Shown here: positions 1,376 to 60,103 of the stretch, piece by piece
Layout of the letters: the number at the start of each line of letters is the position of its first letter
Numbering within the stretch: the first letter of the stretch is position 1
Assembly: GCA_964016885.1 (NCBI GenBank)
Contig: OZ024740.1
Location: 56,606,001-56,670,000, forward strand
Reading direction: 5' to 3'
Length of the DNA: 64,000 bases
Source: Eledone cirrhosa
Taxonomy: Eukaryota
Translations under genes and position numbers: made by a program
Notes under the pieces: generated by a model
Databases searched by the model: none
The model's input: only the letters and a program-made list of their open reading frames with translations
Told to the model about the DNA's origin: nothing

Positions 1376-1506
1376 ATATATATATATATATTAATAAAAG
1401 GAATTCCAACTTTGTCTGATTTACTCGTTTTATTTACAATCCTTTAAAATTTATAATGGTATTAGAATGAAATAGTATGGCAGAATATTAAATTTTAAGT
1501 GTTAAT

Positions 1507-1545
1507 TGAACAAGTACTTTCATGCTTTCGCAATCTTCAGGTTCA
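1507..1545 (-). ncRNA. Minimal type I hammerhead ribozyme (family A, left arm)
   Basis: Reverse complement of 1625-1663. Confidence 0.8.
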
Positions 1546-1624
1546 TAATGTATGGTGACAGTCAAGTTTGCAATTTTCAACTGTGACAGTTGAAAATTGC
1601 AAACTTGACTGTCACCACAAAACA

Positions 1625-1663
1625 TGAACCTGAAGATTGCGAAAGCATGAAAGTACTTGTTCA
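1625..1663 (+). ncRNA. Minimal type I hammerhead ribozyme (family A)
   Basis: TGAAC-CTGAAGA-tTGCgaaaGCAt-GAAA-GTAC-TT-GTTCA; stem I TGAAC/GTTCA, palindromic stem III GTAC, CUU site. Confidence 0.82.
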
Positions 1664-1884
1664 ATTAACACTTAACATTTAATATTCTACCATACTATTT
1701 CATTCTAATACCATTATAAATTTTAAAGGATTGTAAATAAAACGAGTAAATCAGACAAAGTTGGAATTCCTTTTATTAATATAATCTTCTATACACAATC
1801 ATATACAGCCGTGTATATTTATCTATCTATCTATCTATCTATCTCTCTCTCTCTCTATATATATATATATTCATAAAGCAATTA

Positions 1885-2022
1885 ACCAGTATATTACTGG
1901 TACTTTATTTTATCGACCCCGTAAGGCAAAGTTGACCTCGGCGGGATTTGAACTCAGAATGGAAAGGGCCGTAACTCTATGCGTCAAAGCATGACGTCGG
2001 ACCCTCTGCCAATCCACCACCA
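1885..2022 (-). mobile_element. tRNA-derived SINE (octopus-type)
   Basis: ctggtacttattttatcgacccc...ggcaaagttgacctcggcgggatttgaactcagaa; B box gagttcaaatcc on minus strand; many copies in window. Confidence 0.85.
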
Positions 2023-2098
2023 TTCATAAAATAATGAGAAGAGTTCTTCAATGCAAGAAAGCTGTTTTAACAGCAAAATGCCGTCAATGACAGCGTCG

Positions 2099-2797
2099 GG
2101 TAAAATTTACCTGAAAGGACAGAAATCAGCGGCCAGAAATATATTGGCTCGCAGAAGTGATAGGAAGCAAGGAGCAAAGGAAGAAAATAGTCGATACAAG
2201 ATCACACAAAGATCTTTTAACCTCTTCTACTCTCAGACCATTTAACTTCAGAGTACCACAGAGGATTTCCAGCTCGTGCAACAAAAAAATTATTATTTCT
2301 GTTGGTACGATATTTGCTTGATAAAAATAACAAATTAGACAGACAGATGACAGAGAAGTAAAATGCGTCCTCTCGACACCAAGTCGCCGCTAGAAAAGAC
2401 AGCAAAAGCCCTGGCGCTGCTGAGGTGGCAGCAAACGCAAGTGACAAGCATGAGGGTCTGGTAGGAGAGGTGGGCAGAGAAGAAAAGAAGCAGCAAGAAG
2501 GGGAATGTGTGTGTGAGAGAGAGAAAGAACGAAAGAAGGGGGGAAATGAAGAGGGGCAGGAATAGCCAACAAACCCCAAGCGATGAAATTTGTCTAAAAT
2601 AGAAAGCTAATATAGCTGTGATAAAAATGTACACAAAGTTTTCTCGAAGATCGACTTCTGCAGGCCAACACACTTCTAGCTGATTTCTATCCTTGGAGGT
2701 AAATTTTACCTGACGCTGACATTGACATACCCTGAAAAAAGACAACCTTAACGGTTGGAGCAACCGTTAAGGTTGTCTTTTTTCAGGGTATGTCAAT
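2099..2797. repeat. Old inverted repeat (2099-2160 / 2651-2710) plus perfect 77-bp hairpin (2721-2797)
   Basis: ggtaaaatttacct...gcagaagt versus acttctgc...aggtaaattttacc; attgacataccctgaaaaaagacaaccttaacggttg gag followed by its reverse complement. Confidence 0.7.
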
Positions 2798-2824
2798 TTT
2801 TATTTATAAAACTAATCTGTATTG

Positions 2825-2890
2825 TATTTTATCTGATGAAAGCGCACCATAATTTGCCTTGGTGGCCCTTGAAATATGTATAATAAAATA
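2825..2890 (+). ncRNA. Type I hammerhead ribozyme
   Basis: TATTTTAT-CTGATGA-AAG..CACCA..TGGTG..CTT-GAAA-TATGTA-TA-ATAAAATA; 8-bp stem I; about 40 nt upstream of (TA)n. Confidence 0.82.
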
Positions 2891-3002
2891 AATATGGTTT
2901 TATAAATATAGTTTCCATTTGTTAATATATTATATATATATATATATATATATATATATATATATATATATATATATATATATATATATATATATATATA
3001 TA

Positions 3003-56710: not shown

Positions 56711-57273
56711 ATATATATATATATATATATATATATATATATATATATATATATATATATATATATATATATATATATGTATATATATATATATATATAT
56801 ATATATATATATGTATATATATATATGTATATATATATATATATATATATATATATATATATATATATATAAATATATATATATGTATATATATATATAT
56901 ATGTATATATATATATATATGTATATATATATATATGTATATATATATATATATGTATATATATATATATGTATATATATATATATGTATATATATATAT
57001 ATATGTATATATATATATGTATATATATATATGTATATATATATATGTATATATATATATGTATATATATATATGTATATATATATATGTATATATATAT
57101 ATGTATATATATATATGTATATATATATATGTATATATATATATGTATATATATATAAGTATATATATGTATATATATATATGTATATATATGTATATAT
57201 ATGTATATATATATATATATATATATATATATATATATATATATATATATATATGCATATATATATATATATG

Positions 57274-58091
57274 TATATCGAGGCCGTAGAAGAGGTGGTG
57301 AAGAAGGCAAGAAGTATGAGTAATGGAAGCCTTCCAGCTGTCCCCACACCTCAAAGATTGCTCGACCAGAGGGAGTTATTAACAATATAATTAGAAACAC
57401 ACAGATACATGCGGACACACACACATATATACATGAATGCATCCGCACCCAACTGTGAGTTAAGGGTGCCAACTTCACCGATGTTGCTCAATGAATGACC
57501 GGGACAGACCAATTCAGTTGAACTAGACTGAACCAGTATCAGAGTTAAAAATACATTATGAAGAGAGAAGAAACATTTAGATATAATTAGTAATAAAATG
57601 TATCATACCTAAACTGCTCCTAAATTCCTCGACTACGTAGTTTCGTGGCATAAACAAAAACAATATATCATAAAGATATAGAGTCCTTGCGAGGTCTGCC
57701 GACTTATCAAGATGATACCTCATTTTACTAGTCTCAAGAACGCGTCTACACGACGTGAGAAAGAATCCCAAAAGGCGGAGGGGGAGATAGTCACGCGATA
57801 TAACGGTCGAGAAACAGAGCTAAGCCTCTTATAACCCCGAAGAAAATACCACGGAGGCGGAGGGGGTATTTATATCGAGGCCGTAGAAGAGGTGGTGAAG
57901 AAGGCAAGAAGTATGAGTAATGGAAGCCTTCCAGCTGTCCCCACACCTCAAAGATTGCTCGACCAGAGGGAGTTATTAACAATATAATTAGAAACACACA
58001 GATACATGCGGACACACACACATATATACATGAATGCATCCGCACACAGCTCTGTTTCTCGACCGTTATATCGCGTGACTATCTCCCCCTC
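57274..58091 (-). mobile_element. Family R: 597-bp non-coding monomer in partial tandem with a U3:A8 HHR (57626-57715); retrozyme-like
   Basis: Direct repeat 57274-57448 / 57871-58045; ~43-bp inversion 58048-58091 of 57778-57821; no credible ORF. Confidence 0.78.
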
Positions 58092-58485
58092 GAGGAGGAA
58101 GGGGGTCGATGAGGGGAAGGCTGAAGGTGGTGTTTATGTATGTGTGTAGATGTACGTGAGTGTGTGTGCGTGTGTATGTGAGAGTTTGAGGAAGAACGAG
58201 GTTCCATGTTCAGGAAAAGGTTTGTGCGTGGGGTGGGTGTGTAAGTCGGTGTGCGCGTGTTTGTGGAATGAGAGGGTTCAGGTGGTGGAGGAAGTGGCGT
58301 GTGGATTCTGGAGGTTGAGTGTGTATATGTGGGGGTACGCACGTGTGTGTTTGTGTTTATATGTGGTGTGGATGTGGGTGGCGTGGTGTGAAAAAAAATG
58401 TGAGTGTATGTTCGTGGGTAAGTTCCTGAGGTAGTTCCGTCGGATGTGTGAAAAGGTACTGGATATGTTTCATGTTATGGAGTGG

Positions 58486-58733
58486 AGGAGCGAAAAATAT
58501 AAACAAAAGCATTCAAATGTTCTTTGCCTTTATATGGTGGTATTAGAAATTCATTTAAAAGTGTTGTATATATATATAAGAATCCCCATCCTTTAATCCC
58601 ACCATATATATATATATATATATATATATATATATATATATATATATAACACTTTTAAATGAATTTCTAATACCACCATATAAAGGCAAATAACATGTGA
58701 ATGCTTTTGTTTATATTGTTCGCTCTTCCATTT
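58486..58733. repeat. ~85-bp inverted repeat around (TA)n; part repeated at 59686-59726
   Basis: gagcgaaaaatataaacaaaagcattc...aaaagtgtt versus aacacttttaaatg...ttcgctc. Confidence 0.8.
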
Positions 58734-59090
58734 AAATTCATTGGCATGTGAGGTATATATCATTTGTATTTAATCGATTCTTATAAATTTATTTTAACAT
58801 GAATGCAATTTTTTTTATTAGTCTAACGAAAACGTCGTAAATCAATTATATGATGTAATTAAATCCTTGTTAATATATAATCTTATATACATATTAAGAT
58901 TTTGTCATGTTAATCTTGATATACATACTCTGCTTCAGCGTCATGTATTAATATTGGTGCCACCTCCAGTGAACTACAAATTTACTAAATAACTTATATA
59001 TATATATATATATGTAGATCCCGGGTTAAATCGGGGATAACCACAGTAAGTAAGGTACATAGCAGAGTAAAAGTAATTTAATATAGAAAT

Positions 59091-59141
59091 GGCTTCTACA
59101 GGACTAGAACTGTTTCATTCGGAGTAAATCATCAGAAAGCC
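59091..59141 (-). ncRNA. Type I hammerhead
   Basis: Minus: GGCTTT-CTGATGA-tttactccgaat-GAAA-CAG..CTG-TA-GAAGCC; weak stem II. Confidence 0.7.
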
Positions 59142-59848
59142 GACTGTCAATGTAAATTTCTGGTATTTATACATTTTGTTATGGTAAGGGAAGGTTAGTG
59201 GTGGTGGTGGTGGTGGGGGGGGGGGGGGTAGAGCTAATGGTGGGATTAAAGGATGGGGATTCTTAGAAAATTTATTTAGAGAAAGAAGTTTAGGGGCAAG
59301 TTGCAATTGAAATAAACACTACCTTATTCTATAGTACAATTTTGAACAAAAGGTATATCAAGTACATATATACACATACATATATACAGACACACATACA
59401 CACATGTGTATATATATATATATATGTATACATACATATACATATATATATATATATATATATATATATATATATATATTCAGGTTTGAGGTTCACCACT
59501 GGATAGAGCTGGTCAATTCCGCATGGTCAATCTTAATGTAATAATATGGAGAGTACTCAACGTAAAGCAGTTCAACCGTCTTTGTTTTTGTAGTTGGTGG
59601 TGCTAGTACGGAGTTAAATATTATAATGAAATGACAGGAGGCTGGACTTGTCTAAATCCTTGAACGGCCATCCAGCATCTTCCACCTTTTGTTTATATTG
59701 TTCGCTCTTCCATTTAAATTCATTGCCAGGGCGACCGGCAACCGGTGGAAAATGCAGGATGGCGGTCGTCAAATGTAAACATCAATTTCCTTGTTTATCA
59801 TTCACTTGCTAAGTTCATAGCTTCTAATTCGAATGGAAGGAGACGGGA

Positions 59849-59918
59849 TGTGTATTGGTGTAATGGTAGCACGGTGGTCTGGATAACCAAAGATGTTGGT
59901 TCGACTCCCATGTACGGC
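59849..59918 (+). pseudogene. tRNA-like sequence (pseudo-tRNA or SINE head)
   Basis: A box TGGTGTAATGG (59856), B box GGTTCGACTCC (59898), anticodon arm TGGT-ctggata-ACCA; acceptor and T stems weak. Confidence 0.55.
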
Positions 59919-60065
59919 AACACTCATCTTTTTCCATTTCTCCGAGGGTTATAAACCCCACTATCAGGCTAGAAATTTCTTTAGTCTAAAATACGGTGAA
60001 AGCTTATAATTTCTAATTTCTAATATATATATAGAAGTGGTTACACAACAGTTAGTTCACCATAC

Positions 60066-60103
60066 CGAGAACAATTGTTTCACCTTTGCGGATCCTCAGC
60101 TCG
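60066..60103 (-). ncRNA. Minimal hammerhead
   Basis: Minus: CGAG-CTGAGGA-tCCgcaaaGGt-GAAA-CAATTG-TT-CTCG. Confidence 0.75.

Follow-up and report, generated by a model that had tools for sequence, protein, structure and literature searches.

Fold-backs in (TA)n arrays of Eledone cirrhosa are head-to-head 3' ends of 5'-truncated PLEs and their short non-coding relatives

The window analysed here is the whole stretch of 64,000 nt from Eledone cirrhosa (GCA_964016885.1, contig OZ024740.1, positions 56,606,001-56,670,000, forward strand), in which an initial annotation had listed 11 fold-backs lying between (TA)n arrays (Table 1). All 11 are real inverted repeats at the places given, with arm identities of 73-99%; weak hairpins among them are 28137-28363, with arms of only 37 bp, and 19836-20152, in which folding is confined to 20058-20152. 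The claimed (TA)n environment was borne out for 20 of the 22 flanks, and the two others, (TATC)n to the right of 1820 and (CA)n to the right of 20152, are each followed by (TA)n. Their description as unrelated sequences does not hold for all, as they fall into nine families: 1390 and 4931 belong to one family and 16094 and 25306 to another. The statement that they dominate the window goes too far, since PLE-like segments amount to about 14.6 kb (23%, with hand-drawn boundaries) and TA arrays to 11.1 kb (17%). The arms are joined 5' to 5' and the 3' ends of both point into the microsatellite; this outward orientation, already noted initially, applies to 11 of 11 window fold-backs, as judged from the ORF or ribozyme motif, either in the window itself or in relatives elsewhere in the genome. 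The fold-backs are head-to-head 3' ends of 5'-truncated Hydra- or Neptune-type PLEs and of short non-coding relatives, inserted in (TA)n.

Table 1. Insertions and related features of the window; hammerhead positions refer to sequence motifs, with their strand in brackets.
Positions	Strand	Feature	Details
1208..1375		Short divergent pair, family E relative	74% arms; left tail-less, right tailed (ends by eye); absent from the initial list
1390..1820		Family B hairpin, putative Neptune-type PLE 3' ends	Hammerhead cores 1540(-), 1630(+); left tail-less, right 39-nt tail
2721..2930	+	Family D, 77-nt hairpin	Hammerhead 2833; 3' end into (TA)n; left end outside TA
4931..6000		Pair of family B, arms 88% identical	Degenerate hammerheads 5066(-), 5812(+); left tail-less, right tailed
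12634..15735		Family C pair, putative Hydra-type endonuclease remnant	Arms 1.15 kb, 96% identical; ~160-nt tail on the right arm only
13724..14047	-	Family C C-terminal GIY-YIG-type endonuclease fragment	Translation by eye; tblastn against family A protein 33%, E 2e-13
16094..19500		Family A pair, putative Hydra-clade PLE, 98.9% arms	Left ~90-nt tail, right tail-less; hammerheads 16281(-), 19400(+)
17529..18614	+	Family A ORF, C-terminal part, 361 aa (thumb, linker, GIY-YIG)	Translation
19836..20152	-	Family D' element	Hammerhead 20039(-); 95-nt hairpin at 5' end; short right arm ends in (CA)n
25306..25735		Short hairpin of family A', arm identity 98%	Hammerheads 25495(-), 25628(+); tail on the left arm only
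25736..30385		Extended (TA)n array, degenerate, hosting several insertions	Similar arrays 43494-47710, 52326-53697, 56709-57278
26943..27152	+	Unpaired family H copy	U3-A8 hammerhead 26981; TA both sides
27282..27558		Family E pair, non-coding, ~320-nt tandem unit	Only 3' half of the family's hammerhead present
28137..28363		Family F' pair, putative Neptune-type PLE 3' ends	Arms 37 bp long; tail on the right arm only
30386..31129		Non-coding family G, paired; tandem unit of ~585 nt	U3-A8 hammerhead 30523(-)
31147..31226		80-bp insertion: family F inverted tail plus tail-less end	Matches 56616-56705 twice at 100%
43355..43493	+	Family A 3' end without partner, running into (TA)n	Hammerhead 43394
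46320..46722		Family H pair, putative Neptune-type PLE 3' ends	Left tail-less, right 66-nt tail
47709..48127		Family I pair	Long-stem-II hammerheads 47843(-), 47912(+, degenerate)
48311..48853		Cluster of family K ends	U4-variant hammerhead 48842(-); structure by eye
54643..56709	+	Family F, 5'-truncated putative Neptune-type PLE	RT 54692-55585, endonuclease 55804-56253, hammerhead 56457, tail, TA both sides
59995..60115	-	Unpaired short copy between TA runs	Hammerhead-like motif 60099

Exact CUGANGA..GAAA..UH motifs with a stem I of at least 4 bp number 15 in the window, against a mean of 0.35 (maximum 3) in 100 local shuffles, and 12 are left, against 0.07 in shuffles, when stem II is also demanded. 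Two U3-A8 cores (shuffles 0.18, maximum 2) and one U4 variant come in addition, and degenerate and long-stem-II copies read by eye bring the total to about 25, in agreement with the initial count of more than 20 motifs, 14 of them intact. The motifs have the features expected of minimal type I hammerheads, namely the conserved core, stems I and II and a short stem III, which is palindromic in most families; U3-A8 covariants occur in families G and H, and the long-stem-II motif of family C has an intact core in 7 of 25 copies read. As in EN+ PLEs, the motif sits in the pLTR. Monomer folds of six motifs were no stabler than shuffles (z +0.06 to -1.47), stems I and II forming in four of the six, and an Rfam scan of the window yielded no hammerhead family among the best 150 of 201 matches, those listed being microsatellite-driven miRNA and one tRNA-like match. 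As judged from its sequence, the motif is a candidate ribozyme, whose self-cleavage would probably proceed in dimers or with the help of protein, and it is used here as a marker of arm orientation.

The family A ORF is found in full elsewhere in the genome (821 aa from stop to stop, RT plus endonuclease). Its motifs, read by eye, are of Hydra type, with DKT, a CxCx5C linker, no CCHH, and CxxC plus CxH near the C-terminus, and with RWT where the Hydra clade has RWK; Pfam was silent on the protein and its endonuclease, and gave no meaningful match for the endonuclease fragment of family C at 13724..14047. Alignments and motifs from PMC8557442, compared by eye, place family A in all probability in the Hydra clade, to which family C may be assigned by its endonuclease part; both families are inserted into (TA)n. 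Hydra-clade PLEs including Hydra-1_Obim from Octopus bimaculoides (PMC8557442) resemble family A in the GIY-YIG domain without CCHH, in DKT and CxCx5C, in the (TA)n target and in a hammerhead near the 3' end. By eye, family A is nevertheless distinct from Hydra-1_Obim and Penelope-13_HM, having a longer ORF with an Asn-rich linker, a ~1-kb 3' UTR, a 3.7-kb unit, pLTRs, a ~90-nt tail and very many young copies, which are 97-100% alike. Partial tandem pLTRs, an optional inverted 5' copy and a tail at one end are seen in 20 long family A loci, and each arm of the window pair 16094..19500 carries a separate internal deletion.

Families B, F, F' and H show an RT followed by a CX4CxxC linker and a GIY-YIG domain with internal cysteines (CCHH-type), as read by eye from translations and with Pfam, which matches RVT_1 and GIY-YIG in families B, F and H (RVT_1 at E 2e-4 in the window copy 54643..56709, which is without an inverted partner). 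Their motifs suggest that they are of Neptune type, and they are like Neptune-clade PLEs also in (TA)n preference and hammerheads, except that the family B hammerhead has a U-U closure of stem II, which is common in the Hydra-clade table. The coding parent of family B was found in two loci (L308 and L309), and families B, F' and H are 3' ends of coding PLEs although they look non-coding in the window. Families E and G, by contrast, are non-coding, and so probably is family I. Tandem spacing is 320-324 nt in family E and 562-587 nt in family G, with partial tandems in both; the longest open frame of family G has 95 aa, and a sense match to a PLE protein lies upstream in 0 of 30 family E and 1 of 29 family G loci. 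The 1.6 kb upstream that are common to two long family I copies contain no ORF. Families E and G thus resemble non-LTR retrozymes and non-autonomous PLEs (bioRxiv 10.64898/2026.07.22.740005; MRC1, Chlamys-N) as short non-coding type I hammerhead units in partial tandem, but differ from retrozymes in being scattered through (TA)n as head-to-head pairs, with two end sites as in PLEs, and in lacking long tandem arrays.

Genome-wide, the best 30 matches per search, a sample biased to young copies, gave 194 loci of seven families when seeded with a single arm. An outward partner is present in 97 of these and an inward one in two, so that arm orientation is not random, and all 11 close ORF pairs (<10 kb, among 113 matches, counted by eye) are divergent. 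Pairing is limited to roughly half of the copies: 97 of the 194 loci have no partner within 1.5 kb, some of them being long copies that run off the locus. A microsatellite adjoins 173 of 182 typed 3' ends; target-site duplications are unreadable inside (TA)n. Each family has two fixed 3' end sites, a tail-less site and a tail end, with tail lengths of 39-176 nt, and of the 71 strictly typed pairs, 65 combine a tailed with a tail-less arm (49% expected under independence, p 4e-14; the other six have both ends of the same type), as do all 15 simple long pairs.

Such pairs might also arise by independent insertions piling up in one (TA)n, or by later inverted duplication during repair or replication, with gene conversion evening the arms. 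Neighbouring insertions are indeed many within the TA arrays of the window, TA-centred inward repeats occur at 48600-48847 and 58483-58730, the first of which looks like adjacent insertions in one array, inward partners exist in two of the 194 loci, and the internal deletions of the window family A pair attest to later change. However, no TA lies between paired arms, independence predicts discordant tails in about half of the pairs and no strong outward excess, and a later duplication cannot supply a tail missing from the first arm; independent pile-up was rejected on these grounds, and the explanation as a whole is regarded as very improbable. MITEs or fold-back DNA transposons targeting TA, with ribozyme-like sequence by chance, would account for short inverted repeats in TA and for the many family A' copies of similar length (at least 40 genome-wide). 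Against this, there are no symmetric terminal inverted repeats of fixed length: the ends differ by the tail, centres vary, joints differ copy by copy, and insertion lengths range from 80 bp to ~9 kb. Since the arms are moreover 3' ends of RT-coding elements and unpaired single arms are common, this identity was rejected as hardly credible.

Palindromic chimeras are a known artefact of long reads, and hairpins could stem from fold-back reads in the assembly or library. This source was likewise rejected as extremely improbable, because the arms differ by 0.2-27%, the ends occupy two fixed sites and the joints contain inserted bases. RAD-seq short reads from two other samples labelled as the same species also contain a strand-switch joint at the hot spot of family A' (70 and 80 reads, with 2 and 3 start sites), and X1 contigs carry strand-switch joints for family C, supporting the joints at the family rather than the locus level. 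An empty-site comparison of 11990-15845 with four contig sets, in which repeats were skipped, gave no record bridging the insertion and carries no weight either way.

In L1 twin priming, both target strands prime on element RNA, which yields an inverted 5' part and a microhomology joint, and the second primer starts far upstream, leaving arms without overlap. The PLE pairs differ in that both starts lie within 40-180 nt at the 3' end, so that the two arms as a rule repeat the same sequence. In 7 of the 15 simple long pairs neither arm lies wholly within its partner (by eye), and some partners have no common sequence at all, as in L060, the second insertion of L178 and window 31147-31226, which was ruled out as a hairpin for this reason. 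In long insertions, an arm resembles its partner more closely than the median other locus in 13 of 14 cases (0.8% versus 1.8%), but more closely than all other loci in just 9 of these 14, and the test was uninformative for short hairpins (6 of 17); arm similarity could also result from gene conversion. Among 49 joints, in a set that includes 17 loci found with the whole hairpin as query, 25 overlap by at least 2 nt, as against ~18% for chance microhomology, and 20 carry inserts. Sharp 5' ends lie 30-60 nt upstream of the hammerhead motif, family C being without such a site (5 of 34).

The same features bear on self-priming, in which a PLE strand would fold at a short palindrome and be copied into the inverted arm, the endonuclease trimming one end to leave a single tail. 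A version on an antisense template has been proposed for rotifer PLEs, where palindromes at inverted junctions were read in this way (PMC3846280). The hot spot of family A' is a palindrome of 6 bp, long arms usually have a common donor, and 8 of the 15 long pairs are nested, all of which is compatible with fold-back copying; the seven non-nested pairs, the tail-only arms without any sequence in common with their partner and the inserts at joints speak against it. Unpaired copies begin at the same 5' site, fused directly to the microsatellite, which implies that the hot spot needs no palindrome. The shared donor of long arms together with their frequent non-nesting fits priming at two ends better, and fold-back copying appears rather unlikely.

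The preferred reading, with a probability of roughly 0.68, is that a single event gives rise to each pair, reverse transcription on element RNA being primed by both ends of a cut (TA)n. The GIY-YIG endonuclease would cut both strands of (TA)n, and of the two 3'-OH groups one would start at the tail-less site, the second at the end of the tail, on one RNA or on two RNAs from one donor, probably within a dimeric complex. The two cDNAs would stop by truncation or run off the RNA 5' end, which probably corresponds to the sharp site located 30-60 nt upstream of the ribozyme, and be joined via microhomology or short inserted bases; productive extension of one end only would give an unpaired copy, and non-coding families would borrow PLE protein. 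The initial proposal of retro-products from both cut ends is thus upheld as far as PLE products instead of MITEs are concerned, and priming from both ends is supported as their probable origin. Concordance of left and right arrays, as a sign of one source array, was 5 of 7 (p 0.45).

Whether PLE integration in general is concerted, a dimeric complex priming both ends on the RNA of one donor, at the two sites that bound the tail, and the short MITE-like hairpins, in their thousands, being run-offs that end at the RNA start just upstream of the ribozyme, seems an even bet. If true, such a two-ended reaction would explain together why the pLTR is inverted, why only one side has a tail and why short hairpins exist, for two PLE clades and their non-coding passengers. 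An anole PLE has been shown in vitro to cut and extend both strands, with starts at two internal sites bounding the tail and a predicted dimer, in a study that did not examine both ends of the same molecule (PMC11167929). No difference in start site between the strands and no homology at the priming site were observed there (PMC11167929), which counts partly against the proposal, as the tail-less ends found here overlap TA-like bases. The counts predict that an insertion has a single tail, that its arms are not nested and that 5' ends fall at a fixed site, and family A, being young and abundant with intact ORFs, would give biochemical work a second substrate, one whose (TA)n target is defined.

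The arrangement is less under-described than had been supposed, since each of its parts is in print. Octopus Hydra PLEs are known to target (TA)n and to have hammerheads and inverted 5' copies with a one-sided tail, and for Penelope-13_HM an inverted copy truncated at its 5' end is listed, along with hammerheads on either strand (Craig et al., 2021, PMC8557442). The passages on insertion structure in PMC8557442 (Fig. 2), PMC3846280 and PMC8969392 give an inverted 5'-truncated copy and a 30-40 bp tail at one end as general PLE features, and an excerpt on Schistosoma reports opposite-strand hammerhead pairs 100-700 bp apart (PMC4209133). Head-to-head inverted copies, one-sided tails, microhomology joints and U3-A8 cores are the same here, whereas tails reach 39-176 nt and the architecture is counted across seven families. 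What appears to be new is the mechanism together with the counts, i.e., the tail coupling, the non-nested arms and the sharp 5' end sites; these three, as well as tail-only arms, were not found in the accessible portions of published PLE descriptions, and the formation of tandem and inverted PLE insertions has been named an open question (PMC8557442). In annotations of such genomes, these hairpins are likely filed as MITEs, SINEs or unknown repeats, and the accessible part of a recent octopus annotation contains no discussion of them. A minor observation concerns the 5' site: an untemplated G, which was not seen in families B, H and I and is not relied on here as a hint of cap copying, precedes it in 11 of 27 family A' arms (a set including hairpin-seeded loci).

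The fold-back pattern of the window is real and is explained by Penelope-like elements (PLEs) of known clades, among them new families. All 11 fold-backs listed in the initial annotation are present, with arms that are 73-99% alike and very short in two cases, and 20 of their 22 flanks consist of (TA)n, the other two being (TATC)n and (CA)n. They are not all unrelated in sequence, the 11 fold-backs representing nine families (A to I). The window is rich in (TA)n (30% G+C, from a 3.0 Gb animal genome), and "dominating" is too strong a word for PLE-like segments making up about 23% of it, next to 17% of TA arrays.

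The ORF within 16094-19500 has 113 scored genome matches at 97-100%, and the search with the family A ORF returned 88,521 first-look candidates, a figure not to be read as a copy number. The complete ORF of family A encodes 821 amino acids with RWT and DKT motifs, a CxCx5C linker, terminal CxxC and CxH motifs and no CCHH, a set matching the hallmarks of the Hydra clade in section 11 of PMC8557442. The Hydra-clade list of the same paper includes Hydra-1_Obim from Octopus bimaculoides with a preference for (TA)n, and family A resembles a published octopus element; the only named relative of its protein is from Argonauta. Both resemblances make a cephalopod the likely source of the window. Full copies consist of pseudo-LTR, tail, ORF, 3' UTR and ribozyme motif. 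At one locus outside the window (L159:190-2655), RT and endonuclease are separated in the ORF by a stretch rich in Asn, reminiscent of the inserts of this kind that PMC3846280 describes for rotifer PLEs. Family C is likewise predicted to be Hydra-type, as judged on its endonuclease part, and families B, F, F' and H represent the 3' ends of coding elements whose motifs point to the Neptune type. Families E and G lack coding capacity; their units, roughly 320 and 585 nt long, respectively, occur in partial tandem. No ORF is present in the 1.6 kb common to two long copies of family I. A third Hydra-type family, about 35-42% identical to family A, neighbors copies of B and H elsewhere in the genome (L309:2-1958, L307:2323-2931).

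The genome was searched with one arm from each of seven families, and the best 30 loci per family (210 in total) were reduced to 194 by removing seven window copies and nine second arms of already counted loci. Every family searched has two fixed 3' end sites flanking a tail of 39-176 nt, before or after which an arm ends, and a microsatellite adjoins 173 of 182 typed 3' ends (12 ends were untypable). The outward orientation claimed from the window also holds at this scale: a partner within 1.5 kb and without an intervening TA array faces outward in 97 of the 194 loci and inward in two, the remaining loci being unpaired or extending beyond the locus end. Among the 113 ORF matches, every one of the 11 pairs spaced by at most 10 kb is divergent, as read by eye. 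The two arms, moreover, are coupled in their ends, with one tailed and one tail-less arm in 65 of 71 strictly typed pairs, where unpaired copies would predict 49% (p 4e-14), and in 79 of 89 with looser typing. Twenty long family A loci, six chosen as close pairs and 14 for a full ORF, include 17 divergent pairs (11 of the 14 chosen for the ORF), and exactly one tail is found in all 15 simple long pairs. At two loci outside the window (L046 and L056), a family A 5' end is joined to other sequence.

An origin of the pairs as assembly chimeras is argued against by the divergence of the arms, the fixed ends and the inserts at the joints; strand-switch joints also occur in short-read data from two further samples and in one contig set, which gives support at the family level. 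The joints vary copy by copy: 49 joints in 53 loci (17 of them hairpin-seeded) comprise 25 overlaps of at least 2 nt, one of 1 nt, three blunt joints and 20 inserts. In seven of 15 long pairs neither arm holds the other. Some pairs share no sequence at all: at 31147-31226 of the window, at L060 and in L178 (second insertion), an inverted tail is joined to a tail-less end. Barring later deletions, such arms rule out that one was copied from the other; the other eight long pairs fit both models. Self-priming, as proposed in PMC3846280, is the less likely account. In 13 of 14 long insertions the two arms differ less from one another than the median seen for other loci (0.8% versus 1.8%), and in nine of the 14 no other locus is as close; gene conversion is an alternative account of this closeness, and short hairpins gave no discrimination. 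For an anole PLE, PMC11167929 describes cutting and extension of both strands in vitro, two internal start sites bounding the tail, a predicted dimer and a ribozyme that is dispensable in vitro. Arm nesting, arm closeness, joint variety and these anole data together favor, with a probability of about two in three, a mechanism in which the two ends of a cleaved (TA)n would prime at the two sites bounding the tail and the products would then be united by end joining. Inverted 5' copies and one-sided tails (PMC8557442, PMC3846280 and PMC8969392), a bias to (TA)n, ribozyme variants of the U3-A8 and U-U kinds, opposite-strand ribozyme pairs (PMC8557442 and PMC4209133) and non-autonomous PLEs (bioRxiv 10.64898/2026.07.22.740005) are already published; the comparison also covered PMC13282606, PMC9977147 and PMC6765202. 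No paper counting the tail coupling or stating a two-end model was found in the largely open-access literature searched, and the PLE reviews of 2005 (Evgen'ev and Arkhipova) and 2006 (Arkhipova) may already contain such a model. The new families and counts render an open mechanistic question testable.

Upstream of the ribozyme core, 5' ends cluster within a span of 9 nt in 16 of 37 arms of family A (near -61), 20 of 37 of family H and 33 of 42 of family B (both near -42), and 20 of 35 of family I (near -33); the B and H queries started near these sites, a bias to short arms insufficient for so sharp a peak. Family C, with five of 34 arms in such a span, lacks a sharp site. Unpaired copies begin at the same positions, which most likely represent the 5' end of the element RNA, a strong RT stop being the rival explanation.

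The window contains 15 exact hammerhead cores with a stem I of at least 4 bp, versus a mean of 0.35 in 100 shuffles. A stricter scan yields 12 (0.07 in shuffles), to which two cores of the U3-A8 type and a single U4 variant are added. The count of more than 20 in the initial annotation is reached, at about 25, once copies that are degenerate or have a long stem II, recognized by eye, are included. Hammerhead families are absent among the best 150 of 201 Rfam matches, and monomer folds are not more stable than shuffles, as expected for minimal PLE ribozymes. Further features of the window are collected in the table; its kilobase (TA)n arrays may have arisen by slippage or by repeated copying by a telomerase-related RT.

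Further repeats and features of the window
Feature	Position	Strand	Remarks
LINE-type RT, broken	31582-33338	-	Pfam RVT_1, E 8e-21; unrelated to hairpins
LINE-type RT, broken	62778-63746	+	Pfam RVT_1, E 2e-9; unrelated to hairpins
tRNA-like match	59849-59917	+	Rfam, 33 bits, above gathering score; probably SINE head or pseudogene
SINE-like short repeat family	1877-2007, 4210-4379, 10062-10224, 34484-34604, 37042-37765, 49867-51122	both	One family, many copies
TA-flanked repeat	15884-16035, 20851-21002	opposite	96% alike; not placed in families A to I
Repeat adjoining TA	57278-58091		138-bp direct duplication; 44-bp inverted repeat adjoining TA; partly recurs at 3011-3341
Kilobase (TA)n arrays	25736-30385, 43494-47710, 52326-53697, 56709-57278		Regular interruptions, differing between segments
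Unlike hammerhead motifs	51953-52325	52026(-), 52206(+)	Outward-facing, between TA arrays; possibly a pair with arms from different families
Inverted repeat, (TA)n centre	58483-58730		Non-TA outer flanks; as one unit, does not fit the outward rule
Inverted repeats without TA flanks	2083-2158 with 2654-2726; 8199-8446		May be ordinary DNA-transposon remnants
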